DNA from: a virus
Taxonomy: Duplodnaviria > Heunggongvirae > Uroviricota > Caudoviricetes
Length of the DNA stretch: 64,000 nucleotides
Strand: one strand, 5' to 3'
Virus record (IMG/VR): IMGVR_UViG_3300025117_000034
Shown: in pieces, positions 1,661 through 38,731 of the stretch
Layout of the letters: each line of letters begins with the position of its first letter
Numbering within the stretch: the stretch's first letter is position 1
Translations under genes and position numbers: made by a program
The notes under the pieces: generated by a model
The model's database searches: none
Seen by the model: the letters and a program-made list of their open reading frames with translations, nothing else
Told to the model about the DNA's origin: nothing

Positions 1661-1671
1661 AAGTGCACCCC

Positions 1672-2775
1672 TTATTGGACGTTAACACCTGCAGCTTGGA
1701 ATTTCGGCTTGAGCAGCTCCATTGCCTGCTTGAGAGCATCCCACTTTTGCTGCTGGAAAATAGTGGTGGGCAAAGTATTGACCATCTCCTGACAGTCAAA
1801 GGAGGCAAATGCATGGATGATGGTAGTATTGGTTACGGAGTGTTCCGGCTCAGCATCAAGAAGACGAGCTCGGATTTCTTCGTCATACCTGCCACGAGCT
1901 AAACAGTCATGTATGTCATCATCCCAATTGCCTTCACGTATCAGATCAGAAACACTATCAGGTGAGTAGTACTCGCAGTTATCACAGTCGCCACGGTTAC
2001 AGTTGTCACAATCACCACGATGGCAATCATCACAATGACCGAGCTTCTTGTTCGCCATTACTTTGGCTTCGGCTTGCACCATGCAAGTATCCGTGAGACA
2101 ATCCTTGACAGCCTCCATAACGAAGTCGGTCACCATGGAACTGTTGCCCATGGCGAGCATGCGCATATCCTCAGTGAAGTTGACCTCACCAGCCATAACA
2201 CTGAACACCGCAAGGGATGCAGCGGTGGCGGCAGGGATTGACCACGACGGAGTAATGGTGTAACCGTTGGTCTCCTCATCAGAGAACGTGAACGGGAATG
2301 CACGGCTGACATTCAGAGTAATACCGTCGTACCCGCACCGCTGATACTGGATGTTATTCTGGCGGCACCACTTGTTAAGCAGCTGCTGTGACTTGACATT
2401 ATCCGTGCAACAGAAGATAACGCTGGCCTCATCAAGGATTGCCACGTTCTCATCAGTGATCTTTTCCTGGTAGCAGGAAACGCTGCAGTCAGGGCGAATC
2501 TTACGGATGAAATTGCGCAGCACCTCGGTCTTGAAACTCCCCACCGCACCTGATTCAAAGGGGAGGCGGTTCAGATTACTGGTCTCCAGCTTATCCATGT
2601 CGTACAATTCAAGGCTCGGGCACCCACTCATAGCCAGGAAGATTGCCACCCAGCTGCCAGTGCCACCGCAACCAACCACCACAGCCCTTGTCGGGACATT
2701 CAGAGGACGACCCAGAGCCGATTCAAGAGCAGTTTGACGTTCGTACAAAGCTCCTTCAACACGAGTAGTTTCCAT
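1672..2775 (-). CDS. E1-like adenylyltransferase (ThiF/MoeB/E1 superfamily) with C-terminal CxxC zinc motif
   Basis: VVVGCGGTGSWVAIFLAMSG...LYDMDKLETSNLNRLPF matches the ThiF Rossmann and D-x-D...SNLNRQ signature. C-terminal CDDCHRGDCDNCNRGDCDNC. Start moved to METTRV (GGAGG RBS) just after the upstream stop. Confidence 0.85.
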   Translation of the reverse strand: METTRVEGALYERQTALESALGRPLNVPTRAVVVGCGGTGSWVAIFLAMSGCPSLELYDMDKLETSNLNRLPFESGAVGSFKTEVLRNFIRKIRPDCSVSCYQEKITDENVAILDEASVIFCCTDNVKSQQLLNKWCRQNNIQYQRCGYDGITLNVSRAFPFTFSDEETNGYTITPSWSIPAATAASLAVFSVMAGEVNFTEDMRMLAMGNSSMVTDFVMEAVKDCLTDTCMVQAEAKVMANKKLGHCDDCHRGDCDNCNRGDCDNCEYYSPDSVSDLIREGNWDDDIHDCLARGRYDEEIRARLLDAEPEHSVTNTTIIHAFASFDCQEMVNTLPTTIFQQQKWDALKQAMELLKPKFQAAGVNVQ

Positions 2776-2779
2776 TATA

Positions 2780-3535
2780 CTATGTAACCTCCCCTTCTTT
2801 CTTGGTTTCTTTCTTATCAACCTTACCGAAGAACTCCTCAACACCAGTGGTCAGCTTGATGATACCCTTCTCTGCCAGATCATTGATGTTGCGCATCCCA
2901 CCATGAGTTCCAGGGCCAATGATCTTCTCAAAGGAAGGGAGCTTAAGCAGGTTATAGCTGCCACCAAGAGAAGACATATTGATTGTCTTGAGCATGCTAC
3001 GAACTTTCTTGCTGCGCTCCACTATGTCAGCATAGCTCTTGGGAGCAGGACGAATATAGGAGCTGAGTTCACCCACGCACAGAAGCTTTTCTGAGGAGTC
3101 ACCATCCCTGTCACGGACACCAAAGTTGTTGTGGAAGTGCGAGCCGACATAAGGCCACTGGGTGAAGTAGACATACTCACCGTTCGGTTCATACACTGCA
3201 CCAATGTACCCATTGAATACTGCAGGCTCAACCATCTTCCAACGCTTGCCATAGCTGTCCAGGATATACTCAATGCGAAGTTCACCTGTGTAGCCAACAA
3301 CGCACATGTAGTTACCCTTGTAGAAACGCACAGGGATCTCAGGACTGTTAATAACTGAGGGCATATTAAACTTTGACTTGCGCAGCTCCCGCATAGCCGC
3401 ATTGATCTGCTCCAGCTTGCCTTTAAATAAACGAGCTAATGAGGGAATGGGTACAGGCTTGTCCATTTCCTTGAATACTTCGACTGTCATGGTCTGCGGA
3501 GAACCATCAGCGGTGTCTTCCTCTTCGTCAGCCAT
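2780..3535 (-). CDS. hypothetical protein; candidate E2/UBC-like fold (HxHNN...LLC)
   Basis: N-terminal helix, then a beta-rich core, then SHFHNNFG...EKLLCVGEL resembling UBC HPN...ICLDIL with a longer insert. Sits between the MIB/HERC2 and E1 genes. Start chosen at MADEEED (GGAGG RBS). Confidence 0.4.
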   Translation of the reverse strand: MADEEEDTADGSPQTMTVEVFKEMDKPVPIPSLARLFKGKLEQINAAMRELRKSKFNMPSVINSPEIPVRFYKGNYMCVVGYTGELRIEYILDSYGKRWKMVEPAVFNGYIGAVYEPNGEYVYFTQWPYVGSHFHNNFGVRDRDGDSSEKLLCVGELSSYIRPAPKSYADIVERSKKVRSMLKTINMSSLGGSYNLLKLPSFEKIIGPGTHGGMRNINDLAEKGIIKLTTGVEEFFGKVDKKETKKEGEVT

Positions 3536-4610
3536 TGCCCTGACCTCCAACTCCATTTATTTCCCACACATGCTCAAACCTGAACTGACCCTGCAGCTGA
3601 GAATCCTTGTTAACACCATGAATAGCGGCAGATCTCTTGTCACGGAGCATAACCATGAATGTGTTGCACAGACCTGCAGACTTTGCCCCATTCATAAGAC
3701 GAACTAGCACTTCCCTGACACGCTTGTTCCCAAGGTCATACAACGGGACACCAAACGCTATGAGCATGACAGACTTGCCCTCACGGTAACGCTTGAATCC
3801 CTTGAGAGCTTTCTCCACCAGCTTTTTATGCTCTTTCTCAGCAGCTTCATTGGTTGAAATCACCTTGGAGTTGATAGCATCAGCAGCTTCCTTGCGCTTG
3901 GCTGCTATCTTTGCTGCATCGTGCTTGGTAACACAGCAGATATGCTTCTTAGCATCATTGTAGGCGTAGTAATAGCTGGCAGTATTGCCCCACATCACCT
4001 CAATGTTATAGATCGTTCCATCCTGTGAGGTGAAATTACGACCTACACCAATCACCCTGCCCTTGCCAGGCTTGCCATTGGTGAAATCCTGATTGCCATA
4101 GCTCCAGTCCCTGCCACGGCGAACCATCATACCAACCTTAAGCTCGGCAGGGTAGTCATCATCGGGAAGCTCAGGAGTTTCCTCCTTCTTTTCGACAGGC
4201 TTCGGTTCCTCCACAACAACGGCAGGAGCTGGGTCGTCATCAGCAAACGGATCAGGATCTTCCACTACTGCAGGTGCCGGAGTGACCAGCACAAAGTCCT
4301 GACGTTCACCACCATACAAGTAACTGTCAGTTCTGTCATTACTATCCCAACGGATTCTGTACCAACGTGAACCAGGGTAGTCTCTGTTGTCTCTTCCTAA
4401 CTCGATAATCTCACCGGCCTGCTCAACACCATGGTAATGATCCTGTGTACCCCATTGCCAGGTAAAACCACGACGAACACGGTCACCAACAGCAGGTACC
4501 CACGGTGTTGCAGCCGGTTCCTGCTGTTGAGCAGGGGCACTGTCAGCCACCGGAGGAGCCACTACTGCTGCCGGTACAGGTGCAGCTGCTGTCAAATCAC
4601 TTAGGCGCAT
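3528..4610 (-). CDS. tandem MIB/HERC2-domain protein with Ala/Pro-rich linker and unknown C-terminal domain
   Basis: Two copies of G.RVRRG..W.WG.QD..G....G.V...........Y...W (VGDRVRRGFTWQWGTQDHYHG... and VGMMVRRGRDWSYGNQDFTNG...) match the MIB/HERC2 consensus. Start MRLSDL with GGGAGGTGG RBS. Confidence 0.8.
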   Translation of the reverse strand: MRLSDLTAAAPVPAAVVAPPVADSAPAQQQEPAATPWVPAVGDRVRRGFTWQWGTQDHYHGVEQAGEIIELGRDNRDYPGSRWYRIRWDSNDRTDSYLYGGERQDFVLVTPAPAVVEDPDPFADDDPAPAVVVEEPKPVEKKEETPELPDDDYPAELKVGMMVRRGRDWSYGNQDFTNGKPGKGRVIGVGRNFTSQDGTIYNIEVMWGNTASYYYAYNDAKKHICCVTKHDAAKIAAKRKEAADAINSKVISTNEAAEKEHKKLVEKALKGFKRYREGKSVMLIAFGVPLYDLGNKRVREVLVRLMNGAKSAGLCNTFMVMLRDKRSAAIHGVNKDSQLQGQFRFEHVWEINGVGGQGNG

Positions 4611-4830
4611 CTTCCACCTCCCCACCATAGATACTCATTATCAAGCTCATTGAAACCTCAGCCCATCGTACAAAGTCAGGGAGGTAAATGTAACCACCCT
4701 TTATATCCTTGACCATATCCATACCCTCTTCGATATGATCGGCTATCTCATCAATTTCGTCATCATCAGGTGGGGCAGACTCAGCCGACACCAGCGGACT
4801 GGGCTTCCCGTTCAGTTGTGCCATATTCAT
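4597..4830 (-). CDS. small acidic hypothetical protein
   Basis: ORF track, 77 aa, D/E-rich. First gene of the colinear run feeding into the MIB/HERC2 operon. Confidence 0.5.
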   Translation of the reverse strand: MNMAQLNGKPSPLVSAESAPPDDDEIDEIADHIEEGMDMVKDIKGGYIYLPDFVRWAEVSMSLIMSIYGGEVEDAPK

Positions 4831-5317: not shown

Positions 5318-5560
5318 CTAGGCTTGCTGTCCACTTGAATTTCCCTCCGCATTATTAAACACATGCTCATTGCCGAAGAAAGGAACACACAGCAACTGCT
5401 TAATGCCGTGACAATCCATGGGAATCTTGTTGCAATGAATCTTGTCATCTTTGTGCGGCTTGGCATGGGGACAGGATGCCCCCTTGTCCAGTGATGCACA
5501 GCCCTGCGGACTTATCCTTCCCTGACAAATGTACAGTTGTTCTTCAGCACCACTCACCAT
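5318..5560 (-). CDS. Cys-rich mini-protein, NMV(I/L)P family member (divergent)
   Basis: 80 aa, 8 Cys. C-terminal LLCVPFFGNEHVFNN resembles the family motif. Confidence 0.45.
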   Translation of the reverse strand: MVSGAEEQLYICQGRISPQGCASLDKGASCPHAKPHKDDKIHCNKIPMDCHGIKQLLCVPFFGNEHVFNNAEGNSSGQQA

Positions 5561-5810
5561 TTTGGTCTCCTTTGTTTTCAGGATCGTGTAACAACTTTGG
5601 AATTACCATGTTATCAGCATAGGGCAGACACTTGAAGAAAGGTGTTTTTCCACCAAGCTTTATGCCCCATGTACACATACCTGGTGTGTCACAATATGCA
5701 GTGCATACATGTGGAACTCTATGCCCACACCTTGCATTATGCGTTGGAGAGTGGACACAATGGCCCTGAGCTCTCCCGACACATACCATAAGCTTCTGCT
5801 CAGCATTCAA
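5544..5810 (-). CDS. Cys-rich mini-protein, NMV(I/L)P family
   Basis: 88 aa. C-terminal CLPYADNMVIPKLL. Confidence 0.55.
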   Translation of the reverse strand: MNAEQKLMVCVGRAQGHCVHSPTHNARCGHRVPHVCTAYCDTPGMCTWGIKLGGKTPFFKCLPYADNMVIPKLLHDPENKGDQNGEWC

Positions 5811-6043
5811 GGTTTGCCCACCTCCTTAGGCAGCACCATGTTATCAGCGCATGGTACACACACAGTTTTTACTATTGGCTCACTTACCCAACCACATATC
5901 TCCACATATGTGCACTCAGCACCCTGAAGCTTGTGAGGACCTCTGTGTACACATCGTATAGTATCTCCAAGTGTGGCCACTCCTTCTCTGCAATGCCCAG
6001 ACAACCATCCCGTGCACACATACCATTTAGTATCATCGCTCAA
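5807..6043 (-). CDS. Cys-rich mini-protein, NMV(I/L)P family
   Basis: 78 aa. C-terminal CVPCADNMVLPKEVGKP. ATGA-type junction with neighbours. Confidence 0.55.
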   Translation of the reverse strand: MSDDTKWYVCTGWLSGHCREGVATLGDTIRCVHRGPHKLQGAECTYVEICGWVSEPIVKTVCVPCADNMVLPKEVGKP

Positions 6044-6270
6044 CTATGACCACCCCCGTCCTTTGGAACTATGAAGTTATGTGGTGCATCTACCAAGTAA
6101 CGATCTCGTATAACAGATCGGTCACATAAAAGACTGTACCTCTTCCTGCCGTCAGGCTCTGTTATAGCTTGGGAAATGAATCCAGGATCTATCATTACTC
6201 TCCCACCACACTCTAAACATTTCTGGTCTATACCAAGCTGACCACACACTAAGTACTTTCCAATGACCAT
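6040..6270 (-). CDS. Cys-rich mini-protein (divergent, APHNFIVPKDGG)
   Basis: 76 aa, CxxC pairs. AGGAG RBS. Confidence 0.5.
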   Translation of the reverse strand: MVIGKYLVCGQLGIDQKCLECGGRVMIDPGFISQAITEPDGRKRYSLLCDRSVIRDRYLVDAPHNFIVPKDGGGHS

Positions 6271-6275
6271 AATAC

Positions 6276-6425
6276 CTAGCTCCTGAGTTCAACTTCAATG
6301 TCATCAAGGAGTTTCTGGACACTCTTGCAATACTCTTTCTTGATCTTCTGCTGCTTGTATAGTACCATGAGATCTTCAAGGAATAACCTCAGACGAATAA
6401 GCAGATCACGTGTTTGTGGTGTCAT
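6276..6425 (-). CDS. small ORF (~49 aa) below the track cutoff, ATGA-coupled
   Basis: Own translation MTPQTRDLLIRLRLFLEDLMVLYKQQKIKKEYCKSVQKLLDDIEVELRS. Its ATG overlaps the TGA of 6422..6685. Confidence 0.4.
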   Translation of the reverse strand: MTPQTRDLLIRLRLFLEDLMVLYKQQKIKKEYCKSVQKLLDDIEVELRS

Positions 6426-6685
6426 TTTAGAACCCCTTTCTCCTTAAGCCACTCACCTCTCATACCACCTTTTGGTATAACCATGTTATCATAGAACTGT
6501 ATCATTGGAACATATATTGGTTTAATAGAGCTATTGGTAAACCTCCAACAGGTGCGTTTGTCTCCAGGCTTAATAGACTTCCCAGCAAACCATATTGCAG
6601 GACGGGGTTGTGCGTATGAGCAGTTAGCACTTCTACAGTACTCACTTACATAGGCACAGATGTACGTTTCAGTACCGTGATACAT
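6422..6685 (-). CDS. Cys-rich mini-protein, NMV(I/L)P family
   Basis: 87 aa. MIQFYDNMVIPKGG. Confidence 0.55.
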   Translation of the reverse strand: MYHGTETYICAYVSEYCRSANCSYAQPRPAIWFAGKSIKPGDKRTCWRFTNSSIKPIYVPMIQFYDNMVIPKGGMRGEWLKEKGVLK

Positions 6686-6941
6686 CTATGTCCACCCCCT
6701 TGCTCTTGACCCAGTTAAAATAATGGTCACCCTCAGGTATAGCCATGTTGTCATAGTACTGGATAAGTGGAACTCTGAAATTCTTAATGTCACAACCACG
6801 TGTTTCACCAGGTTTAACACTGGTGCCCATGAACCAGTCTTCAGGCTTCTCTCTTGCGTATACACATACACCAGTGCTTTTACAATATTCACTTACATAG
6901 GCACAGATGAACCATTTAGTTTCTGATTCAGGATTAGGCAT
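6669..6941 (-). CDS. Cys-rich mini-protein, NMV(I/L)P family
   Basis: 90 aa. LIQYYDNMAIPEGDHY. Paralog of 6422..6685 (ICAYVSEYC shared). Confidence 0.55.
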   Translation of the reverse strand: MPNPESETKWFICAYVSEYCKSTGVCVYAREKPEDWFMGTSVKPGETRGCDIKNFRVPLIQYYDNMAIPEGDHYFNWVKSKGVDIDVSRY

Positions 6942-6998: not shown

Positions 6999-7081
6999 TG
7001 GAGCGCACGACTGGGATCGAACCAGCATTTTCAGCTCCTGTTACGATTAACTGCTTAGAAGGCAGACTCGGCTACGTGCGC
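6999..7081 (-). tRNA. tRNA-like element with aberrant cloverleaf (possible tRNA-Arg TCT or pseudo-tRNA)
   Basis: RC gives a 7-bp acceptor stem GCGCACG/CGTGCGC, T-arm GCTGG-TTCGATC-CCAGT and an encoded CCA. The only anticodon-like hairpin is CTGC-CTTCTAA-GCAG (TCT). No D-arm can be formed. Confidence 0.45.
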
Positions 7082-7086
7082 GTTAT

Positions 7087-7551
7087 TCAAGACTTTAACC
7101 AGTGACGTATGGCATTATCAGAGACACCATATTTTCTACCTGTACCACAATATCCTAGTAATTCTACATCATTAAGCAGCATGGCAACAGAAGGTCTTTC
7201 AGCCCTTCTTTGTGATAGTCCCCAGCATTTAACGCTGCAGTACTTTTTGCTATCAATACCACAAACTGAACCACATACAGGACAAATAATAGTTTCTCTT
7301 CTAACCGGATTATGAAGTGCGCAGTGTTGGGAACTGCTGAGAACTTCTAGGTTGGCTCTAGAGTTATTTAGCTTATCTCCATCCTTGTGGTGTACGTGCT
7401 CATCTTTTCTAAGCCATCTCCCCAAGTACATCGAGGCAGCATGCCTATGATAGTACACTTTACCGTTACTAGACAAAGGGTGACCACTGTCCATAAAGTA
7501 CATGTACCCAGTACCAGTATCTAACCTTTGTTTTATGTCTTTATAATACAT
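7087..7551 (-). CDS. HNH homing endonuclease
   Basis: HHKDGDKLNNSRANLEVLSSSQHCALH is an HNH motif. Zn-binding CPVCG...C.VKC. Sits between two tRNA genes. Confidence 0.75.
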   Translation of the reverse strand: MYYKDIKQRLDTGTGYMYFMDSGHPLSSNGKVYYHRHAASMYLGRWLRKDEHVHHKDGDKLNNSRANLEVLSSSQHCALHNPVRRETIICPVCGSVCGIDSKKYCSVKCWGLSQRRAERPSVAMLLNDVELLGYCGTGRKYGVSDNAIRHWLKS

Positions 7552-7587: not shown

Positions 7588-7663
7588 TGGTGGGCAAAGA
7601 CAGAATTGAACTGTCATTGACGACTTATGAGGACGCTGTTCTAAACCATTGAACTATTTGCCC
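7588..7663 (-). tRNA. tRNA-Met (anticodon CAT)
   Basis: RC: GGGCAAA-TA-GTTC-AATGGTTTA-GAAC-A-GCGTC-CTCATAA-GTCGT-CAAT-GACAG-TTCAATT-CTGTC-TTTGCCC-A-CCA. Full cloverleaf with one T-T mismatch in the anticodon stem. Confidence 0.65.
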
Positions 7664-9050: not shown

Positions 9051-9836
9051 TTAGAACAGGCGCAGGTAACAGCAAGGGTTATTGCGCTTGAAGTGAGTTG
9101 CTCTCCATCTCTTGATAATAATGTGATCCTTGTACTTCTCCGATCCATTCCAGATATGACTCTTCAGGATCTTATCCACCTCAGCGTAGCTCGATGCACC
9201 AAGCTGGTCAAGGTCGGAGTTGGTGATACCTAGTCCATCAGTAGGCACAGCTTTGATACATGCTTGCAGGGCACGTTTCTGTGCACGTGTCCCCTCATTG
9301 TCCACGATCCATTGGGCGAGCTGGTACACCTCAGTCTTCCAATAGTGCTGAATAGGTGCTATGTCGCCAACGTCCCCATGCAGAGTCCAGAAGCCAAGGA
9401 GATACTCAGTCAGGTTATCCGTGGACAGCACCGCCCCCTGGCATGAAAAGGCAGTGTTGTACAAGTGAATCATACGCACACGAGCCTTAACGTTACCTTT
9501 ACGAATTTTCTCGTTGGGTATATTCAACAAGGAAAGTTGGTGACTGCTAATTAACTCTACCTCGGAGTCAATCTCTGCTTCGAACCACCTATGAGAGTAC
9601 GTCCTACAAATGTCCCTGGCCCTCTTAAGCTCATCAGGTTTGTTAGACTTGGAAGGGAGTGAAACAAGAACCAAAGGAATACCAAGTTCCTTGTTGCAGA
9701 CATGGTAAGCAAGGGCTGCAACGAGTGCACTGTCCACACCACCACTTACACCGAGAACCAGAGACTTAAGCTGTGCCCCCTCAGTGTATCTCTTGAGCCA
9801 TGTACGTATCTTCTTCACCTCAGATTTGCAGTTCAC
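9051..9836 (-). CDS. nadE: NH3-dependent NAD+ synthetase
   Basis: SLVLGVSGGVDSALVAALA PP-loop, GNVKARVRM, TDNLTEYLLGFWTLHGDVGDIAPI and KT.VY align motif by motif with E. coli NadE. Confidence 0.9.
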   Translation of the reverse strand: MNCKSEVKKIRTWLKRYTEGAQLKSLVLGVSGGVDSALVAALAYHVCNKELGIPLVLVSLPSKSNKPDELKRARDICRTYSHRWFEAEIDSEVELISSHQLSLLNIPNEKIRKGNVKARVRMIHLYNTAFSCQGAVLSTDNLTEYLLGFWTLHGDVGDIAPIQHYWKTEVYQLAQWIVDNEGTRAQKRALQACIKAVPTDGLGITNSDLDQLGASSYAEVDKILKSHIWNGSEKYKDHIIIKRWRATHFKRNNPCCYLRLF

Positions 9837-11005
9837 ACAATCCTCCCGAACACTTGATTGAGATAGGCTAAGTAGCCATCATCCTCACACATCTGCTTGC
9901 CCTCGCTGTCACTCAGTTTGGCCACAGGTTGATACTGGCATTCCGTCATTTTTATAACACATTGCAGTGCAGGAACTCCCACATCATTGGTAAGGTTTGT
10001 ACCTATACCGAACGATGTCTTGATGTCATTACCAAACTTATTGTACAGATCAATAGCCTTGGGGATTGTCAGGCAATCCGAGAACACTGCACTCTTGGTC
10101 TTCGGGTCAATACCCATGTCCTTGTACCAACGGATCAGCTGCTCACACCAAGCATATGGATCACCACTGTCATGTCTGCATCCATCGTACAACTTGGCGA
10201 AGTACAGATCAAAGTCCTTGAGGAACGCCTTGAACCCAACAACGTCTGACAGGGCAATACCAAGATCACCACGGTACTCATCAACCCATTTCTGTAGCAT
10301 GAACTTCTGGGAATCAATGAGCCGAGGACCAAGTGCCTGACCAGCTTGGAGCCATTCATGTGCCATGGTTCCAATGGGTTTCACCCTGTGCTTCATTGCA
10401 AGGTACACATTGGATGTGCCAATGAACTTCTCAGGACATGTGCTGGCAAGGTGACCAACCACATAGTCCTGCCAGTACTTGCTGAACCTGCGCCGTGTAC
10501 CAAAGTCAGCGAACCTGAACCCTGTGGGAGCAAGGCATATATCACTGACTTTCTTGAGCAGTCGTACCTGACCCTCACCCCAGAGGATTGACTCATTCTG
10601 GGTGTGGTTGTAGTACACCTCATTGACAATGGAGAGGATGAGGGTCTCAAAGTAAATGGTCAGAAACCAGGGTCCCTCAATGGTTATACCGAGGTCCCCG
10701 TTGTCCAATGCTTTAACTGTGATGTACTTGGCATTGGGCTTGTACATCTCGAGGAAGTCAATGTAATCAGGCTTGAGGAACCTTATGGTTCGGAGGTACT
10801 CAATCTCCTGCCAATTGAACTTGAGCTCACACATCTGAATGATCTCGCTCTTGATCTCCTCAGCGAATCTGCCAAGCTCTGCCCCTGCTGTTCGGCATTT
10901 AAACTTGTACTTGACATGTGCCCCTGGGAACTGGTGAAACACAGCTTGTCCCATGCTTAATTTGTAACTGTCTAAATCTAGCAGACTTGTGATTATTCCT
11001 CCCAT
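9833..11005 (-). CDS. pncB: nicotinate phosphoribosyltransferase
   Basis: LLDLDSYKLSMGQAVFHQFPGAHVKYKFKCR matches LLDTDAYKLHMQQAVFH...EFRCR. FGTRRRFS, GTSNV..A and GTMAHEW are all conserved versus E. coli PncB. Confidence 0.9.
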   Translation of the reverse strand: MGGIITSLLDLDSYKLSMGQAVFHQFPGAHVKYKFKCRTAGAELGRFAEEIKSEIIQMCELKFNWQEIEYLRTIRFLKPDYIDFLEMYKPNAKYITVKALDNGDLGITIEGPWFLTIYFETLILSIVNEVYYNHTQNESILWGEGQVRLLKKVSDICLAPTGFRFADFGTRRRFSKYWQDYVVGHLASTCPEKFIGTSNVYLAMKHRVKPIGTMAHEWLQAGQALGPRLIDSQKFMLQKWVDEYRGDLGIALSDVVGFKAFLKDFDLYFAKLYDGCRHDSGDPYAWCEQLIRWYKDMGIDPKTKSAVFSDCLTIPKAIDLYNKFGNDIKTSFGIGTNLTNDVGVPALQCVIKMTECQYQPVAKLSDSEGKQMCEDDGYLAYLNQVFGRIV

Positions 11006-11670
11006 AGAACACGTCCGTCAAGGATAGGAGCAAGCCCTGTGATCTTGTCAATGAATCTGACGTTCTTGCCAGCAAAGCGTTTCTTGGTGTCCTCCACTGC
11101 TGTGTCACCAATACCCCTGCAGGCAGCGAGGTTGATGACCACACGGAAGCCAGCGGACACAAGCTGCTCAGAGGTGGTAGCCACGCAGTAATTAGTGGCA
11201 AGGCCCCCAACGATCACCAGCTTAATCCCCTTGCTGAACAGGAACTCAATGACCCCTGTGCTCAGCTTGTTGAACAGATCATGGAAGCATGCGCCGTACG
11301 GGTGGAGATTAGGCTCACAGCCCTTCCATACAAAAAAGTCGTACTCCGTAACATCAGGAAGACCATCCAGCAACTCACAGCCAGTGCTGCCTGTTACACA
11401 ATGGGACGGCCAGTGAATGTCCACATTGGGAAGACCAACAGGGGAAAACGGGGGGTGATCACCATCAGCGTTCCACATAGCCCAAGCAGGGTGGGCATCC
11501 TTGGAGCCAACGCGATAAGCAGCGAACAATGCCTGCTTGTTAAGTTCATTGACGATCTCAAGAGCCCCAGGGACAGGGAGCTCAGCAGGGCAGAGTTCAC
11601 TGAACCCCTTCTGAGCATCCACATCAAAGCTGGCAATGTATTTCTTGTCAATAGCCATATCTTGTGCCAC
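10993..11670 (-). CDS. pncA: nicotinamidase / isochorismatase-family hydrolase (PncA-like)
   Basis: FDVDAQKGF Asp, Lys, and catalytic Cys in ATNYCVATT, plus the isochorismatase fold pattern. Overlaps the pncB start. Confidence 0.75.
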   Translation of the reverse strand: MAQDMAIDKKYIASFDVDAQKGFSELCPAELPVPGALEIVNELNKQALFAAYRVGSKDAHPAWAMWNADGDHPPFSPVGLPNVDIHWPSHCVTGSTGCELLDGLPDVTEYDFFVWKGCEPNLHPYGACFHDLFNKLSTGVIEFLFSKGIKLVIVGGLATNYCVATTSEQLVSAGFRVVINLAACRGIGDTAVEDTKKRFAGKNVRFIDKITGLAPILDGRVLWEE

Positions 11671-11945: not shown

Positions 11946-12250
11946 TATTTCTCCTTCTCATCGAAGTACCCAAGGAACCGTTTGACACGGAACATAAACT
12001 TTCCCTTGAAGTTCTTGCACTTGTTGTCACCATTGAGGAACAGGCACATCTCATCGGAAATTTTATTGTAACTACGCCGCAACGGGCTTGAGTAGCCAAC
12101 CATGTTTGACGGGTGCACACAAGTGCTGAGTGTCAGTTGGTGGACTTTTTCCTCCATATAAATGCATTCTTCGCAGTACACCTTGGGAGTATTGTCAATA
12201 ACCTTAGGAGTATTGTCAATAACCTTAGGTTCAAAGTCGGTGAGTTTCAT
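11945..12250 (-). CDS. Cys-rich mini-protein (MKLTDF; contains 7-aa tandem PKVIDNT repeat)
   Basis: Start moved to MKLTDFEPKVIDNTPKVIDNTPKVYCEECIY. A 21-nt direct repeat at 12185..12230. Confidence 0.55.
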   Translation of the reverse strand: MKLTDFEPKVIDNTPKVIDNTPKVYCEECIYMEEKVHQLTLSTCVHPSNMVGYSSPLRRSYNKISDEMCLFLNGDNKCKNFKGKFMFRVKRFLGYFDEKEK

Positions 12251-12387
12251 TGGATATCCTTCTCCAGACATAAGAGATGAGTGTTCAAACTGATAGACAC
12301 AAGCATTACCCAGATTGCAGTGTTATAGTCTTTTTCAAGAGCACAGGTAGCGGACAAGACGATAAGAAACGTGGATATAAGTTTCAT
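12247..12387 (-). CDS. small ORF (~46 aa) with N-terminal signal-peptide-like segment, translationally coupled
   Basis: Own translation MKLISTFLIVLSATCALEKDYNTAIWVMLVSISLNTHLLCLEKDIQ. TGATG overlap upstream and ATGA overlap downstream. Confidence 0.35.
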   Translation of the reverse strand: MKLISTFLIVLSATCALEKDYNTAIWVMLVSISLNTHLLCLEKDIQ

Positions 12388-12692
12388 CAGAGCACCTGCC
12401 CACAGCTTCCACAATACTTGACATCCGTGCCATTCTCAGCAGCACACTTGGGGCACACCCGAACTTCAATGGCCGACCCCACAGCCCCTCCAACCACGTA
12501 CCCAGCAACCCCACCAATCACAGCGTTCCATTGGTTCTCTTTGGAGCTGTCGCCCACCTGATACCCAGCCACGGTACCAATGGCAGCTCCGGCCACCTGG
12601 CTCTGCTGCGTGGTACTGCAACCCTGGGCCATCAGGATAACCAGCAATGCACTCAAGGTGAAACAGCCACACATAAGCAATCGACGAATCAT
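12387..12692 (-). CDS. lipoprotein with glycine-zipper segment and C-terminal zinc ribbon
   Basis: Signal and lipobox ...LVILMAQGC. GAAIGTVAGYQVG...GGVAGYVVGGAVG glycine zipper. CPKC...CGSC. Confidence 0.6.
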   Translation of the reverse strand: MIRRLLMCGCFTLSALLVILMAQGCSTTQQSQVAGAAIGTVAGYQVGDSSKENQWNAVIGGVAGYVVGGAVGSAIEVRVCPKCAAENGTDVKYCGSCGQVL

Positions 12693-12703
12693 TGTACACC
12701 CCC

Positions 12704-12910
12704 TTAGTATTTTTTTATCACCATGTTCTCAGCTACTCTAACAACAGTAACGCCATGAATTACTCCACCATCTCGCTGGCATGCGTGTCGTCTATGGCTG
12801 TCAGCATAGATGTTCCAGTTATTTGGATGATCTATGTTACACCCATGTTGGTTCCACTTACATTTACCATTTACAAAGTCCCGACAGATCCAGTAGTCGA
12901 GCTCAGGCAT
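12704..12910 (-). CDS. Cys-rich mini-protein, NMV(I/L) family
   Basis: 68 aa. ...VVRVAENMVIKKY. Confidence 0.5.
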   Translation of the reverse strand: MPELDYWICRDFVNGKCKWNQHGCNIDHPNNWNIYADSHRRHACQRDGGVIHGVTVVRVAENMVIKKY

Positions 12911-13124
12911 AGGGTTTCCCCTTTACTATCACCATGTTCTCAGCGTATGCTACCAAAGGAACTTTTGCATATGAATTGCCCCTGGTGCAATGTACAGGAG
13001 TGCCTTTAATATAATACTCATACCACGTACTATCTGAGCCACGTGGCTTTCGAACCTCACACCCAAAGGGTGCCCAGGTACATATGCCCTTTGCGAAGTC
13101 TGAGCAGATAAATTGCTCATCCAT
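12903..13124 (-). CDS. Cys-rich mini-protein, NMV(I/L) family
   Basis: 73 aa. ...AYAENMVIVKGKPYA. AAGGAGG RBS. Confidence 0.55.
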   Translation of the reverse strand: MDEQFICSDFAKGICTWAPFGCEVRKPRGSDSTWYEYYIKGTPVHCTRGNSYAKVPLVAYAENMVIVKGKPYA

Positions 13125-13614: not shown

Positions 13615-14547
13615 TCATTTCAGTCCCTCCTCCACTTCCTCATTGAACTTAACCAGTCGCCTGTTGCAACCATACAGACACTTATCGCATTTCTCAGGCT
13701 TGTCAGTGTACACTTGATCCCTGTACAGATGCGAACAGGTGTACTCGTTGCCAGCAGTGCTCAGCACCCTCTCACTCATTGATATGTAGCATGTCCCAGC
13801 AGTGTTCTGTGGGAACCGAACACCTTGAATGATCCTTTGCTTGGCATCCAAAGTCTCCTTGATCAGTTCAAGTGATTCCCTGTCAAGTTCATTGTAAAGC
13901 TTGGGCATCACCTCATCAAAGAAGCAATCCACGTCCTCATCAGTCATCATGTAGACAGGGTTGGTGCCCTTGTACACAGAGAAGAACACTGCGTATGCCT
14001 TGTGGAATTCCCTGGCCGCAAACTGGGCAAACTCAACGGACTGCTTGTAGTTTGCCTTGCTCAGCGTGAAGGTAACGCTGACACCATTGTTAACCTCAAC
14101 TGCCTTCTTGATGTTACCAAGCACCCTGGCATGTGCACCAGGAACCCCCACTGTTTTATCCCAGGACTCTGCATCACAGCTATCAAGGGATACCTTGAGC
14201 CGTCCAACGTGCTCAGCTGGCGGCTCAATGAAAGCATTGGTGTTCAGGTTGAACCTGTACCGCTTGCTGTTCTCACGGATCAATGGATACAGCCATGGAA
14301 CCAGTGACGGCTCCCCTCCCGTGATGTGGAACAGGGCTGTGCTGCCATACTTTTCAAGGGCTTCCCTGAAGCGTTCCTCAGCCAGTGTTGTACAGGAGAT
14401 AGGATGCTTACAGTATCCGCACTTGAAGTTACACTTGTTAGTGATGAACACTGCCACCCTGCGGACAGGTGGGTTTTGCCCAGACTTCAGTGCTGCCACT
14501 GTTTCCTTAACTCGTCGTTCAAAGTCATCCCAATACAAGGAAGACAT
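13615..14547 (-). CDS. radical SAM enzyme, MoaA/viperin-like (CNFKCGYC, ITGGEPSL, C-terminal CxxC..C)
   Basis: ITNKCNFKCGYC matches MoaA ITDVCNFRCTYC and viperin CNYKCGFC. HITGGEPSL matches LTGGEPSL. NLNTNAF. C-terminal CDKCLYGCNRRLV resembles MoaA CATCNRLRV. Confidence 0.75.
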   Translation of the reverse strand: MSSLYWDDFERRVKETVAALKSGQNPPVRRVAVFITNKCNFKCGYCKHPISCTTLAEERFREALEKYGSTALFHITGGEPSLVPWLYPLIRENSKRYRFNLNTNAFIEPPAEHVGRLKVSLDSCDAESWDKTVGVPGAHARVLGNIKKAVEVNNGVSVTFTLSKANYKQSVEFAQFAAREFHKAYAVFFSVYKGTNPVYMMTDEDVDCFFDEVMPKLYNELDRESLELIKETLDAKQRIIQGVRFPQNTAGTCYISMSERVLSTAGNEYTCSHLYRDQVYTDKPEKCDKCLYGCNRRLVKFNEEVEEGLK

Positions 14548-14556
14548 AGCTGCACC

Positions 14557-14781
14557 TCAATGTTCAAGGTTAAATGCTGCGTATATTCCTGCTGACACAC
14601 AACACATAAGTACCCCTATGGCAAAGGGGAGAAAGGCTCTGTCAATGAGAACAACGCTATCACCGAAGTACACCCAGCGATACCAGTTAGCACCCATAAG
14701 GAGGATGCCAGGGACAGCTGAGGCAAGTCCTGCCCCAGCGGTGATACAGAACAGATACTTCCTAGGATCACGCCGCATCAT
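14557..14781 (-). CDS. small membrane protein (2 TM)
   Basis: 74 aa with hydrophobic stretches. Immediately upstream of the radical SAM gene. Confidence 0.5.
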   Translation of the reverse strand: MMRRDPRKYLFCITAGAGLASAVPGILLMGANWYRWVYFGDSVVLIDRAFLPFAIGVLMCCVSAGIYAAFNLEH

Positions 14782-17003: not shown

Positions 17004-17135
17004 TTAGTTTACCAGCTCTTCAACAATGTTGTTACCCACTTTCCAGTAATAAGTCCAGCCACCCCCTTTGCGTGACCGTGCATACATGAACCATCCGAAT
17101 ACCTCTCCGAACTTTTTATAGATAGGTGAGCTCAT
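17004..17135 (-). CDS. small ORF (~43 aa), ATGA-coupled to the repeat-protein gene
   Basis: Own translation MSSPIYKKFGEVFGWFMYARSRKGGGWTYYWKVGNNIVEELVN. Its ATG overlaps the TGA of 17132..18157. Confidence 0.3.
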   Translation of the reverse strand: MSSPIYKKFGEVFGWFMYARSRKGGGWTYYWKVGNNIVEELVN

Positions 17136-18157
17136 ACCTTTATCTCCTTGATCACTCTGCATTTACTGACCCGCACTTTTCCTTCCTGGATGGCAAGGAT
17201 ATCCTTCATATCAACTTCGCATGCCAAGTAACAATCAATGAACTCCCTGTCCCAGTAGTGCAGATGGGACAGGTGTATTCCTGAAGCACAGGATTTCTTT
17301 GGGTCCCTGTCAGGATTTTTAACCCTTACCACCTCTCCTACATGGTAAATGAAGTCAATGTTATACTGAGAGTAGAAACCCCTTAGACTCTTGTAAACTG
17401 ATTTAAACAGGATCACCTTCCCATTGACTGGGAAGTGTAGAGTCTGAGCATACAGGGAGTGTTGTTTATTATTACCCCCTGTGATATCCTGTGCTAAGTT
17501 ACCAACTATAAAGTGTGACTCTCCGGTACGAGAATTGCCATACACCCAAGCATTGCCTGACACCTGAGCATCGCCATACACCCGAGAATTGCCATACACC
17601 CAAGCATTGCCTGACACCTGAGCATTGCCTGACACCTGAGCATCGCCATACACCCGAGAATTGCCATACACCCAAGCATTGCCTGACACCCAAGCATTGC
17701 CTGACACCCGAGCATTGCCTGACACCTGAGCATTGCCATACACCCAAGCATTGCCTGACACCTGAGCATTGCCTGACACCTGAGCATTGCCTGACACCTG
17801 AGCATCACCATACACCCGAGCATTGCCATACACCCGAGCATCACCATACACCCGAGCATCACCATACACCCAAGCATTGCCTGACACCTGAGCATTGCCT
17901 GACACCTGAGCATCGCCTGACACCCGAGCATCGCCTGACACCCGAGCATCGCCTGACACCCGAGCATCACCATACACCCGAGCATCACCATACACCCAAG
18001 CATCACCATACACCCAAGCATTGCCCTCATGGCTAAGGTTGGACTCTTTCTCTACAAAGCCACCTTTGTCTCCAGCTTTGACATTGGAGAAGTCCTTAAG
18101 GGCTATTACCCTGTGCAGACCACTAACTTCCTTTTTACCTAGTTTGTACTTTTCCAT
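17132..18157 (-). CDS. hexapeptide-repeat (left-handed beta-helix-like) protein with ~30 tandem G(D/N)A(R/Q/W)V(S/Y) repeats
   Basis: 341 aa. The central 180 aa are perfect hexad repeats (VYGDARVSGNAQVSGNAWVYG...). Non-repetitive N- and C-terminal domains. Confidence 0.7.
   Translation of the reverse strand: MEKYKLGKKEVSGLHRVIALKDFSNVKAGDKGGFVEKESNLSHEGNAWVYGDAWVYGDARVYGDARVSGDARVSGDARVSGDAQVSGNAQVSGNAWVYGDARVYGDARVYGNARVYGDAQVSGNAQVSGNAQVSGNAWVYGNAQVSGNARVSGNAWVSGNAWVYGNSRVYGDAQVSGNAQVSGNAWVYGNSRVYGDAQVSGNAWVYGNSRTGESHFIVGNLAQDITGGNNKQHSLYAQTLHFPVNGKVILFKSVYKSLRGFYSQYNIDFIYHVGEVVRVKNPDRDPKKSCASGIHLSHLHYWDREFIDCYLACEVDMKDILAIQEGKVRVSKCRVIKEIKV
17500..18040. repeat. ~30 tandem copies of an 18-nt coding repeat (gcattgcctgacacc[tc][ga]a variants)
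   Basis: Seen directly in the sequence. It encodes the hexad repeats and generates the spurious alt-frame ORFs 17499..18036. Confidence 0.85.
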
Positions 18158-19090: not shown

Positions 19091-19369
19091 TTAACCATTG
19101 AAGCCATGCATGCCTATCATGCCACAGACAGGGCATGCTGCCCATTTGAATCCCTTGCCTAGCACAGGCATCCTGGGTGCCCAATGCACATTGTCATCCT
19201 TGTCAAGTAACAGGTACTCCCAACTTCTTAACCACTCACTAGGCTTATCGTGCTTAGCAAGGTTAATATTGTCTGCCACCGGAATGGCAACGATGTCCCT
19301 TACCTTGCTGCGTTGCTTACAGTGACTGCAGCAATGTGTGTTGTCTGGATTTGAATCAAAGATACTCAT
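19091..19369 (-). CDS. Cys-rich mini-protein (CxHCK...ACPxC...HG family)
   Basis: 92 aa. Paralog of 19988..20260. Confidence 0.5.
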   Translation of the reverse strand: MSIFDSNPDNTHCCSHCKQRSKVRDIVAIPVADNINLAKHDKPSEWLRSWEYLLLDKDDNVHWAPRMPVLGKGFKWAACPVCGMIGMHGFNG

Positions 19370-19563
19370 GTCACCACCCCCTCATAGCTCTTCTCCTTAA
19401 GCACCATGTTCTCTGCGTACTCTATGCAGCCTACCACCTTGTCAGCCTGTGGACAATACGCTTCATCACAATGTCCTGGAGTTATTGTGACATGCGGGTT
19501 ATAGCATTGGCAGCATGGGTTTACACAGTCACCTCTGCCCTCACAGATATACTTGATGGTCAT
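19366..19563 (-). CDS. Cys-rich mini-protein, NMV(I/L) family
   Basis: ...CIEYAENMVLKEKSYEG. Confidence 0.5.
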   Translation of the reverse strand: MTIKYICEGRGDCVNPCCQCYNPHVTITPGHCDEAYCPQADKVVGCIEYAENMVLKEKSYEGVVT

Positions 19564-30386: not shown

Positions 30387-30815
30387 CTAGTCTTCTGGAT
30401 AATAGTTCTTGTTACCATGCCTGTGCTCGTCATCCATATCATTAGCTTCTCTCTCAGCTATAGCCTTCTTCTTGCGCAGCTCTGCCTCAATGGAATCAAT
30501 GGGCCACACCATACACTGCTCCCGCTTGTATGTGTCGGAGAAGATGCACTGCTCATCAGGTAGCATGTTGCAGAACTTAACCTGTAATGTTTCCGGTACG
30601 TTATCATAGCTCTTACGCATTACATCCACAGCTTCCTCTGGGCTTGATGCCTTGATAGCCCCAACCATAATGTCATTCATGTCACAGTCCATACCAGTGA
30701 TCCACCAAGGACCATGGTACTCAAACTCCTTCTTGCTACAAGGAGAGATCCAGCTTAGGAAGTACGTGTGCTTAGGTAGTTCCTTCTTAGTCCTCTTCTT
30801 AACTCTACTAGCCAT
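30387..30815 (-). CDS. hypothetical protein
   Basis: ORF track, 142 aa. Confidence 0.5.
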   Translation of the reverse strand: MASRVKKRTKKELPKHTYFLSWISPCSKKEFEYHGPWWITGMDCDMNDIMVGAIKASSPEEAVDVMRKSYDNVPETLQVKFCNMLPDEQCIFSDTYKREQCMVWPIDSIEAELRKKKAIAEREANDMDDEHRHGNKNYYPED

Positions 30816-31369
30816 TAAACCTTACCCTCCCTAGCGAACCGTTCTAGTATGATCCATGCCTTTGCACTGATCATTGCACTGCTATCCTTAAGTAGATCTG
30901 AAACCTCTGCTCGAGTTGCTACATAAGTAGTTATGTCCTCTGAGTCCTGTAGGTCAGGTTCTCCTACACCACCACGTGCCTCACAGTATACAATGGCTAT
31001 AGCTTCATCTGTAAGGCCAGCTGAGTTATACACAAAAGGACTTACACGATTTATACCGAAGAGTGAAAACCCTGTCTCTTCCTTGATCTCCCTGTATGCT
31101 GCGTCCTCAACGCTCTCCCCATCATCTATGAGCCCTGCAGGGAACCCCCACTCGTAGCCGCCAAGAGGTGCCCTGTACTCCCTAGTGATAATAATGTTGT
31201 CACCTATGGTAGCCACAATCATTACAGCGTTGACACCAGTACGCCTTGTGACGAACTGCCAATGCTTTGTGTTACCCTTGATCTCATATGTCCTATCAAT
31301 GAAGGACAGGTGGTTGGTACCAGCTAGGAGCTCATCACCGTCCCCTAGCTTTATTGGATTACGTCTCAT
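30815..31369 (-). CDS. Nudix hydrolase, ADP-ribose pyrophosphatase-like
   Basis: Nudix box GGYEWGFPAGLIDDGESVEDAAYREIKEETG (G-x5-E-x7-REuxEExG). Overall layout as in ADPRase/NudF. Confidence 0.8.
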   Translation of the reverse strand: MRRNPIKLGDGDELLAGTNHLSFIDRTYEIKGNTKHWQFVTRRTGVNAVMIVATIGDNIIITREYRAPLGGYEWGFPAGLIDDGESVEDAAYREIKEETGFSLFGINRVSPFVYNSAGLTDEAIAIVYCEARGGVGEPDLQDSEDITTYVATRAEVSDLLKDSSAMISAKAWIILERFAREGKV

Positions 31370-38723: not shown

Positions 38724-38731
38724 GTAATCTC

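Follow-up and report, generated by a model that had tools for sequence, protein, structure and literature searches.

An apparently undescribed radical SAM family of large phages and its recurrent RNA-repair neighbours

Among described radical SAM enzymes, those nearest in sequence or fold to the phage protein studied here differ chiefly in what follows their shared catalytic core. MoaA, the GTP 3',8-cyclase (PDB 1tv7/2fb2), has three C-terminal cysteines in CX2CX13C (open iron), a C-terminal GG tail, and, in the S. aureus enzyme (2FB3), basic GTP-binding residues that we take to be R17, K69, R71, K163, R192, R266, and R268. Twitch and SPASM domains are marked by a CX9-15GX4C hairpin followed by further cluster-ligating cysteines, and in BtrN and anSME a fully ligated auxiliary cluster shuttles an electron. 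Viperin, to our knowledge, binds one [4Fe-4S] cluster and lacks an auxiliary Cys domain, and we know of no auxiliary cluster in DesII (PDB 8hzy). BlsE, the cytosylglucuronate decarboxylase (PDB 7vob), has been reported with one [4Fe-4S] cluster (PMC3715490). The genes for BlsE and DesII lie in actinomycete antibiotic gene clusters, not in phages.

A second body of work concerns RNA repair. In Pnkp/Hen1 repair systems, methylation by Hen1 is a protection step. For phages, comparative genomics has assembled repair components including RtcB, RlaP, and calcineurin-like and HD phosphoesterases, with no mention of a radical SAM enzyme (PMC7824862), and RlaP has been proposed to restore excised anticodon nucleotides (PMC12776372). 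Our literature searches on radical SAM enzymes with RtcB, phage, or NAD returned nothing relevant, and none of the literature searched described a radical SAM enzyme as an RNA-repair component.

Large phages carry many radical SAM genes without an assigned function, and annotation pipelines routinely call the present one "MoaA," a label that risks false claims of viral molybdenum cofactor synthesis or sulfur relay. Here, we follow up this gene in a 64,000-nucleotide stretch of DNA from a T4-like phage (IMG/VR record IMGVR_UViG_3300025117_000034; the whole stretch is hereafter "the window"), and compare its product, its family, and its genomic surroundings with the systems above.

The radical SAM gene and its family

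The initial annotation had read a radical SAM ORF with CNFKCGYC, ITGGEPSL, and NLNTNAF motifs from the sequence, and both the translation (Table 1) and a match to Pfam Radical_SAM (PF04055; E=1.2e-8, 35.8 bits against a cut-off of 29.5) bear this out. The cluster-binding cysteines C39, C43, and C46 are invariant in 38 of 38 aligned family members, as are H74, T76, G77, G78, E79, P80, and S81 around the GGE motif, and the AF2 model (mean pLDDT 91.4) has a fold that matches many radical SAM structures. The gene product is a genuine radical SAM enzyme, and its reading frame is no chance ORF because an identical protein is encoded on 20 contigs and the searches yielded 357 homologues.

Table 1. 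Positions of the radical SAM gene, its motifs, and the adjoining small ORF in the window
Feature	Position	Strand	Remark
Radical SAM gene	13615-14547	(-)	310-aa product; founding member here of the phage-restricted family, with twitch-like C-terminal domain
CNFKCGYC	14410..14433	(-)	aa 39-46; CX3CX2C (C39, C43, C46), motif of the SAM-cleaving [4Fe-4S] cluster
ITGGE	14311..14325	(-)	GGE SAM-binding motif; family-invariant His74 directly before
HITGGEPSL	aa 74-82 of 310-aa protein		from translation
NLNTNAF	aa 100-106 of 310-aa protein		from translation
C-terminal Cys region	13666..13791	(-)	C253-x12-G266-x4-C271 ... C290-x3-C294; probable auxiliary Fe-S site, from sequence and model
74-aa ORF	14557-14781	(-)	two hydrophobic segments; 9 nt upstream of radical SAM gene

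The family is compact, with members 35-63% identical to the window protein and the best 120 of the 357 homologues 51-63% identical over the full length. Only two full-length members occur in genomes of 185,579 species, both on MAG contigs shorter than 9 kb. GenBank phages gave no DNA match and, at the protein level, only generic radical SAMs at 22-29% identity, and a fold search of BFVD recovered no family member (best matches 12-19% identical). Matches from a genome scan in Brachyspira were set aside as a different, 490-aa radical SAM protein, whose neighbours read from their translations as glycosyltransferases or sugar epimerases. Members are carried by T4-like phages, of which the window is itself one, and by jumbo phages with RNA-polymerase-subunit-like genes; no domain fusion hinting at a partner appeared among the 1.84 billion representatives searched, and the nearest outgroups fall in no named NCBIfam family. 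By these comparisons, the protein appears to belong to an undescribed radical SAM family that is almost wholly confined to large phages and sits in none of the curated families.

The C-terminal domain and the closest described enzymes

Beyond the core, the protein has cysteines at 253, 271, 287, 290, and 294. The initial annotation had singled out a C-terminal CxxC..C; the Cys-containing region stands, but the first cysteine of that motif does not hold across the family (25 of 38 members have His in place of C287), and the positions invariant in all 38 are C253, G266, C271, C290, and C294. Their spacing fits the twitch/SPASM hairpin motif with its subsequent cysteines, and the AF2 model folds this region as a beta-hairpin plus helices, which together point to a probable auxiliary Fe-S cluster site. 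The C-terminal 108-111 aa searched alone gave no SPASM match in Pfam even at E<=10 and no match among PDB sequences, and the N_Twi_rSAM model scored 31.6 against a cut-off of 170.

The best structural matches of the model are BlsE, DesII, and SkfB, and the matched SPASM/twitch enzymes align with it over 235-270 residues. BlsE and DesII resemble the phage enzyme in fold at just 13-17% identity; the NCBIfam BlsE model (TIGR04466) scores 20.8 bits against a cut-off of 400, which places the protein outside the BlsE family, and the four extra invariant cysteines set the phage family apart from the single cluster of BlsE. Compared with the twitch/SPASM enzymes SkfB, CteB, anSME, SuiB, and BtrN, the phage C-terminal domain matches no SPASM/twitch profile and lacks the CX2CX5CX3C block that full SPASM domains have, and there is neither a leader-peptide-binding domain nor a conserved peptide gene nearby.

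At the sequence level, MoaA is the best match among curated families and solved structures, over the N-terminal core only (E-value 7e-10, residues 18-183). MoaA and the phage family have in common the CX3CX2C, GGEP, xTN, and SLD core motifs as well as a second, Cys-containing C-terminal region, and to this extent the MoaA likeness noted in the initial annotation holds. It does not extend to family scores (TIGR02666, 41.5 against 284 bits; TIGR02668, 41.2 against 325; NF001199, 32.9 against 231) or to the GTP-binding residues. At the five alignable positions, a comparison that does not reach R266 and R268, all 38 members carry substitutes (R17 to A/S, K69 to I/L, R71 to H, K163 to S, R192 to Y), and these are themselves invariant or nearly so; R17 is also among the residues mutated in 2fb2, as seen in the HMMER alignment. 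The phage cysteines are four, in C-x17-C...C-x3-C, rather than the three of CX2CX13C, no cysteine stands three residues ahead of C253, and the C-termini in the family alignment are variable and lack the GG tail. No MoaC, MoaD, or MoaE was found in the Pfam listings of the examined loci or in the scanned ORFs of the window, outside which lie ~75 kb of the 139.6-kb phage genome. MoaA membership is not supported, given scores far below cut-off, replaced basic residues, missing CX2CX13C and GG tail, and no MoaC in the neighbourhoods examined; what is left is essentially a set of generic SPASM/twitch-type matches that do not preserve the GTP-binding residues of MoaA.

The viperin comparison, also raised in the initial annotation, fares no better. 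The NCBIfam viperin model (NF038283) scores 27.5 bits against a cut-off of 180 over aa 31-128, and the PADLOC pVip model of 257 positions scores 39.5 bits over aa 31-170, both weak, core-only matches that do not span the full length with the C-terminal NTP-binding extension. The structural match to viperin spans 209 residues against 261 for BlsE, and the phage family differs from viperin in its additional domain with four invariant C-terminal cysteines.

Genes around the radical SAM gene

Across 90 non-redundant loci, no single neighbour gene is constant. RtcB is the most frequent, occurring in 10 loci and additionally in L078; in L016, L076, L090, and L152 it abuts or overlaps the gene (with overlapping reading frames in L076 and L090), and in L005, L031, and L150 it lies within 1 kb. 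RlaP adjoins the gene in L076 and L028, and other near neighbours include Metallophos (7 loci), Band_7 (4), HD_4 (3), and exoribonuclease (3). tRNA genes lie 30-200 bp away in L082, L100, L128, and L016, and L100, L021, and L149 have arrays of 10-27 tRNAs within 3 kb of it. The components described for jumbo-phage RNA-repair modules (RtcB, RlaP, calcineurin-like/HD phosphoesterases; PMC7824862) adjoin the radical SAM gene in many phages, and exoribonuclease and tRNA arrays are among its neighbours too.

This association is short in range. RNA-repair markers reach 12.3 per 100 kb at 0-1 kb from the gene against 2.2 at 1-10 kb, a ~5.6-fold difference (17 marker genes within 1 kb across the 90 loci, and 15 in the 1-10 kb range, which holds five times as much sequence), which is somewhat optimistic because the neighbour families were picked from the same loci as the density test; RtcB alone counts 7 at 0-1 kb and 4 at 1-10 kb. 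The links are scattered over the family tree, including an outgroup at 36% identity, and gene order varies by locus, so the adjacency to RNA-repair genes is repeated and independent. It is also statistical and not universal: about three quarters of the flanked loci have no RNA-repair gene within 1 kb, and the window locus, in an accessory region with NAD-salvage genes, has no RNA-repair gene within 10 kb of the gene and no RNA ligase in the 64 kb. The closest relative of the window gene with flanking sequence (L076) lies between RlaP and RtcB. As evidence of function, such association is weak, as accessory genes of phages collect in shared variable parts of the genome.

Two further neighbours had been proposed as partners. 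The 74-aa ORF, which the initial annotation had called a small membrane partner, has two hydrophobic segments (aa 10-28 and 43-70; Kyte-Doolittle means 1.9-2.1). The partner role itself finds no support in its distribution: it matches no protein family, it has homologues on contigs of its own phage alone (L001-L003), and none stands beside the gene in 90 other non-redundant family loci. The ORF is specific to this one phage, and the enzyme does not have it as a conserved partner. More generally, no small ORF or peptide is conserved beside the gene across 25 distinct loci (ORFs >=25 aa, relaxed BLAST), and we therefore rejected both the membrane-partner and the precursor-peptide ideas. A 299-aa ORF upstream of the gene in L027 and L029, considered as a partner of the divergent subfamily, was dropped; it has no Pfam match and its translation resembles an HNH/NUMOD-type homing endonuclease. 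The suggested coupling to E1/beta-grasp genes likewise finds no support. In the window, an HNH gene, tRNA genes, and NAD-salvage genes separate the radical SAM gene from the E1 gene, 10.8 kb away, and a JAB-E1 pair falls within 10 kb in only one other locus, L090, which was also the only locus matched when the E1, JAB, MIB_HERC2, and 258-aa proteins of the window were searched against all loci by tblastn.

What the enzyme may do

We consider the best explanation to be a stand-alone, two-cluster radical SAM enzyme serving phage tRNA or RNA repair, at a probability of roughly 0.45. The core cluster would cleave SAM, and the resulting 5'-deoxyadenosyl radical would abstract a hydrogen from the substrate. 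The four C-terminal cysteines would hold a fully ligated auxiliary [4Fe-4S] cluster that exchanges an electron with the substrate radical without binding the substrate directly, unlike that of MoaA. The substrate would be anionic, because ten invariant Arg/Lys residues point there, and would most likely be RNA or a nucleotide handled by the phage tRNA-repair module. One possible role for the enzyme is to re-create a modification, or introduce one, on phage-encoded tRNA or on tRNA that has been repaired; alternatively, it might alter the repair junction and so block re-cutting by host anticodon nucleases, a protective role for which the repair-and-protect logic of Pnkp/Hen1 offers a precedent. 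Weighing on the other side, the family mean pI is only 8.1, the protein contains no recognisable RNA-binding domain, and the enzymes closest in fold (BlsE, DesII, and SkfB) have peptides or small nucleoside- or nucleotide-sugars as substrates rather than RNA. The more specific version, in which the enzyme is an unrecognised tRNA-repair component that acts by radical chemistry on phage-encoded tRNA, or on tRNA rebuilt by RlaP and RtcB after cutting or trimming by host anticodon nucleases, and re-installs a lost modification or makes the junction uncleavable, maybe together with the neighbouring E1/JAB genes (ubiquitin-like or sulfur-carrier) in the window phage and L090, is speculative and on balance unlikely.

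In a different reading, the target is a small molecule in free form, be it a nucleotide, a nucleotide sugar, or a metabolite resembling a nucleoside, which the enzyme would modify by sugar-carbon chemistry of the BlsE, DesII, or viperin type. It would thereby either supply a modified nucleotide to the phage or destroy a host defence signal or toxic nucleotide. The RNA-repair, NAD-salvage, NUDIX, and HD neighbours would then reflect a shared counter-defence island and not a shared substrate. We hold this to be possible if doubtful, given that no nucleotide-sugar or nucleotide-biosynthesis gene recurs next to the gene, that the RtcB enrichment is sharply short-range and includes overlapping reading frames, and that the family keeps four invariant C-terminal cysteines not matched in the one-cluster BlsE or in DesII, which is not known to have an auxiliary cluster. 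The looser fallback of the initial annotation, a novel nucleotide-modification enzyme, is possible. Maturation of a phage or host peptide or protein, in the manner of SkfB, CteB, or anSME and possibly with a flanking small ORF as substrate, is a good deal less probable: no flanking small ORF is conserved in the 25 loci even at relaxed thresholds, the segment ahead of the radical SAM core is just ~28 residues with one helix and no separate leader-binding domain, and 35-63% identity across very different phages favours a universal substrate over a co-evolving peptide.

A viperin-like enzyme producing chain-terminating ddhNTPs seems very improbable, its profile matches (39.5 bits; 27.5 against 180) being confined to the generic core, its structural match being shorter than that of BlsE, and the four-Cys domain of the family not being known from viperins. 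Least credible of all is a MoaA-type GTP 3',8-cyclase, or an E1/beta-grasp partner in a thiocarboxylate or sulfur-transfer pathway. MoaA is the top sequence match, and the distance between the gene and a JAB-E1 pair is 10.8 kb in the window and 2.5 kb in L090; against this, 41 bits fall far below cut-offs of 231-325, all five alignable basic residues have given way to other conserved residues, CX2CX13C, the GG tail, and MoaC/MoaD/MoaE in the neighbourhood listings are missing, and besides L090 no flanked family locus has an E1 within reach.

A phage-restricted, tightly conserved family that repeatedly sits beside RtcB, RlaP, end-healing phosphoesterases, and tRNA arrays offers a concrete and testable lead. 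If true, it would add a new enzymatic step to the struggle in which phage RNA repair counters host anticodon nucleases, where we know of no radical enzyme. If the lead is wrong, the family would still be a clean target for finding new radical SAM chemistry whose substrate many bacterial hosts share.

A phage-restricted radical SAM family

A ribosome-binding-like GAGGTG precedes the radical SAM ORF, whose stop codon shares an ATGA with the start codon of the small ORF that follows, and its product scored 35.8 bits against the Pfam radical SAM domain (cut-off 29.5). Reading of the translation placed all motifs named in the initial annotation within the 310-aa protein, with CNFKCGYC at residues 39–46, HITGGEPSL at 74–82, NLNTNAF at 100–106, and C-terminal cysteines at 253, 271, 287, 290, and 294. 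The gene is clearly real: the identical protein occurs on 20 contigs, the longest of which (139.5–139.7 kb) end at different points, suggesting a complete, circularly permuted phage genome, and 357 further homologues were found (51–63% identity over full length among the 120 matches listed).

The family is phage-restricted. A scan of one genome per species across 185,579 bacterial and archaeal species recovered two full-length members, both on <9 kb contigs from metagenome-assembled genomes and thus probably mis-binned phage DNA, all other matches being generic radical SAMs. No members were found in GenBank phages or the BFVD viral structure set, and a library of 1.84 billion representatives held ~30 family representatives at E ≤ 1e-30 (fragments counted), none with domain fusions, beyond which scores fell sharply to unnamed radical SAM proteins. 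Carrier contigs derive from large phages. The window phage is T4-like (Gp23 capsid protein, Gp20 portal, prohead protease), as is the phage of L032 (L-numbers denote contigs carrying family members); L004, L005, and a further carrier contig, P0054, are from phages of 190–240 kb, the latter two with RNA-polymerase-subunit-like genes. Occasional gene loss is suggested by an L031 remnant retaining residues 3–37 and 260–310 only, beside the RNA ligase RtcB, and by a frameshift-split gene in L024.

Coordinates of features in the window and at other loci carrying the family
Locus	Feature	Position	Strand	Remarks
Window	JAB-like protein	461-1660	-	399 aa
Window	ThiF-type E1	1672-2844	-	390 aa
Window	MIB_HERC2 protein	3528-4628	-	366 aa, two MIB_HERC2 domains
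Window	small Cys-rich paralogues	5544-6941, 12704-13124, 19366-19563	-	65–90 aa
Window	tRNA-like match	7002-7081	-	weak, Rfam
Window	HNH endonuclease	7087-7551	-	
Window	tRNA-Met (CAT)	7588-7663	-	
Window	NAD synthetase (NadE)	9051-9836	-	
Window	nicotinate phosphoribosyltransferase (PncB)	9833-11005	-	
Window	PncA-like isochorismatase/nicotinamidase	10993-11670	-	
Window	radical SAM ORF	13615-14547	-	310 aa, ATG start
Window	74-aa ORF	14557-14781	-	9 nt upstream of radical SAM gene
Window	hexapeptide-repeat protein	17132-18157	-	341 aa
Window	NUDIX hydrolase	30815-31369	-	
Window	tRNA-like sequence	31390-31457	-	ends in CCA
Window	SPFH/Band_7	31581-32405	-	
Window	five-gene run	36152-39463	-	includes 243-aa ORF, 38732-39463
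L004	second radical SAM	1539-2954		
L016	second radical SAM	12223-13104		
L024	radical SAM, frameshifted	10001-10926		
L027	flanking ORFs	9118-10017, 11043-11342		
L031	radical SAM remnant	9863-10153		
L090	JAB-E1 pair	1518-3616		
L119	second radical SAM	1458-2492		

Comparison with MoaA, viperin, and twitch-domain enzymes

The protein had been likened to MoaA and viperin. MoaA was the top match in NCBIfam and among PDB sequences, over the N-terminal core only (profile E-value 7e-10, residues 18–183), with its models at 41 bits against cut-offs of 231–325. Of the residues that we take to be the GTP-contacting basic residues of MoaA (R17, K69, R71, K163, R192, R266, and R268; 2FB3 structure), five could be mapped through the HMMER alignment, R266 and R268 being not alignable, and all five are replaced in 38/38 members of an alignment of diverse family members (R17 by A/S, K69 by I/L, R71 by H, K163 by S, R192 by Y; the HMMER alignment confirms a mutation of R17 in the 2fb2 entry). 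The CX2CX13C motif and GG tail of MoaA are absent from the aligned family, and no neighbourhood listing contained MoaC, MoaD, or MoaE. Viperin models matched only the generic core (NCBIfam 27.5 vs 180; PADLOC pVip 39.5 bits), and an auxiliary Cys domain is, to our knowledge, absent from viperin. These results argue against either identity, and the protein passes none of the curated family tests applied.

Within this 38-member alignment (mean column identity 60%), the invariant positions comprise the radical SAM cysteines C39, C43, and C46, the GGEPS motif, an N-terminal YWD.F..R segment, H74, N102, N104, R116, K118, S120, D122, Y192-K193-G194, R244-F245, S272-H273-L274, R276-D277, and four C-terminal cysteines (C253, C271, C290, and C294); ten Arg/Lys residues are invariant in the family. 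The first cysteine of the C-terminal "CxxC" first noted, Cys287, is His in 25/38 members. C253-x12-G266-x4-C271, with an invariant glycine, matches the CX9-15GX4C hairpin that we take to be the defining motif of SPASM/twitch domains, and C290-x3-C294 comes 18 residues later. An AlphaFold2 model built on the alignment (mean pLDDT 91.4, pTM 0.89) shows a partial barrel of six strands together with a beta-hairpin, two long helices, and terminal helices. Its fold matches were BlsE (score 19.7 over 261 residues), DesII (18.0, 270), SkfB (17.7, 251), CteB (16.7, 235), anSME (16.1, 236), SuiB (15.7, 240), MoaA (15.2, 228), and viperin (15.2, 209). Since the C-terminal domain alone gave no match by sequence, it would be classed as twitch-type by motif and fold only. 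The superfamily is known, while the family has its own auxiliary-Cys pattern and, as far as the literature was searched, a previously unreported gene association; it is without a named or characterised relative in the libraries or papers searched.

Gene neighbourhoods

Loci were pooled from viral, genome, and metagenome scans and exact-protein look-ups, leaving 90 after redundancy removal, and all flanking ORFs were clustered. RtcB was the commonest neighbour (10 loci, with a partial copy in L078 as well, same strand throughout), lying immediately next to the radical SAM gene or overlapping it in L016, L076, L090, and L152 and <1 kb away in L005, L031, and L150. Other neighbours were SNF2 helicases (8 loci), a calcineurin-like phosphoesterase (7, five within 300 bp), SPFH/Band_7 (4), a second radical SAM family (4), the RNA-repair nucleotidyltransferase RlaP (4, adjacent in L076 and L028), an HD_4 phosphohydrolase (3), and an Rv2179c-like 3'-5' exoribonuclease (3); no gene accompanied the radical SAM gene in all loci. 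In L076, whose radical SAM is the nearest relative of the window gene among those with flanking sequence, RlaP, radical SAM, and RtcB follow in this order with overlapping reading frames. As an internal control, these marker genes were binned according to how far they lie from the radical SAM gene, and counts were normalised to the sequence available, giving 17 (12.3 per 100 kb; RtcB alone 7) in 138.5 kb at 0–1 kb and 15 (2.2 per 100 kb; RtcB alone 4) in 681 kb at 1–10 kb. RNA-repair associations occur in several family-tree branches, including a 36%-identity outgroup (L028), and gene orders vary across loci, so they do not represent a single inherited cassette. tRNA genes lie 30–200 bp away in L082, L100, L128, and L016, and 10–27-tRNA arrays <3 kb away in L100, L021, and L149.

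Comparative genomics of jumbo phages assigned RtcB, RlaP, and calcineurin-like/HD phosphoesterases to RNA repair against host anticodon nucleases and NAD synthesis to parallel counter-defence, with no mention of a radical SAM enzyme (PMC7824862). A 2025 preprint demonstrated nucleotide addition to RNA ends by RlaP and proposed that the enzyme replaces anticodon nucleotides that "smart" ribotoxins have removed (PMC12776372). No literature link of a radical SAM enzyme with RtcB was found.

Several further genes were observed. The three NAD-salvage genes of the window have overlapping reading frames, with no NadD-type adenylyltransferase seen alongside, and in L005 and L027, too, NadE and/or PncB lie <10 kb from the radical SAM gene. 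The tRNA-like sequence between Band_7 and NUDIX genes scored 35.1 bits (Rfam tRNA) and was not called by ARAGORN; SPFH/Band-7 with tRNA-like RNA was reportedly proposed as an RNA-repair scaffold by Burroughs and Aravind in 2016, and Band_7 genes stand near the radical SAM gene in four other loci too. A second, unrelated radical SAM protein occurs near the first in L119, L100, L084, L145, L016, and L004; one such family (285–355 aa) adjoins it in L119 and on visual inspection ends in a Cys-rich SPASM-like region, which could hint at multi-step radical chemistry. A divergent-subfamily gene in L027 is flanked by ORFs whose translations resemble an HNH/NUMOD-type homing endonuclease (no Pfam match) and a DUF4326-like protein, a domain predicted to link NAD-utilising signalling systems with DNA modification (PMC7824862). 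The window also encodes a YdcK beta-solenoid/bactofilin-like protein (~30 tandem GDA(R/W/Q)V(Y/S) hexapeptides, DUF5758-like C-terminal region) and, just upstream of the structural genes, five co-directional genes that may form a module for glycan or nucleic-acid modification; all but the 243-aa ORF gave weak Pfam hints, mostly under curated cut-offs (FtsJ-like methyltransferase, GNT-I-like and GMA12/MNN10-like glycosyltransferases, Methyltransf_24).

Couplings to a small membrane partner and to E1/beta-grasp genes, as in a sulfur-carrier pathway, had also been suggested. The 74-aa ORF has two hydrophobic stretches, each of membrane-spanning length, and no family match in Pfam, NCBIfam, or PHROGs; its homologues are confined to contigs of the same phage (0/90 other non-redundant loci), which speaks against a partner, and no other conserved small ORF flanking the gene was found. 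The JAB, E1, and MIB_HERC2 genes are real, forming a cluster (461-4628) with a 258-aa protein, and the E1 resembles E1-E2 proteins of defence systems (PADLOC), but they lie 9–13 kb from the radical SAM gene, beyond small Cys-rich ORFs, an HNH endonuclease, tRNA genes, and the PncA-PncB-NadE block. Among the other loci, a JAB-E1 pair recurs nearby only in L090, where it lies 2.5 kb upstream of paired radical SAM and RtcB genes. A genome-level link is thus a faint possibility, and neither direct biochemical coupling nor the sulfur-carrier reading is supported. The Cys-rich proteins comprise at least seven paralogues, dispersed across the accessory region and with a common (A/Y)(D/E)NMV(I/L) motif at the C-terminus.

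A possible role in RNA repair

We put the probability of an RNA-repair-related role at roughly 45%. SAM would be reductively cleaved, the 5'-deoxyadenosyl radical would take hydrogen from an anionic substrate within a tRNA/RNA-repair process, and a fully Cys-ligated auxiliary cluster may shuttle an electron, as those of BtrN and anSME do; the MoaA cluster, in contrast, binds substrate via an open iron, which the phage cluster presumably would not. Our preferred substrate is tRNA, either repaired or encoded by the phage; the enzyme might restore a lost modification or block re-cleavage, a role like that of Hen1 in Pnkp/Hen1 repair.

Caution is warranted because the variable regions of phage genomes collect accessory genes, most loci are without a repair gene within 1 kb, and the window locus has NAD-salvage genes, not an RNA ligase, within 10 kb. 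Moreover, no RNA-binding domain is obvious in the protein, and its closest folds act on small sugar-nucleosides or peptides. The chief rival, which we rate as somewhat less likely, is an enzyme of small-molecule nucleotides or nucleotide sugars that has only the counter-defence island in common with the repair genes. The broader idea of a novel nucleotide or nucleic-acid modification survives in altered form, shorn of its MoaA, viperin, sulfur-carrier, and membrane-partner specifics. Although function is unproven, an RNA-repair role for this phage family is a concrete and testable lead.
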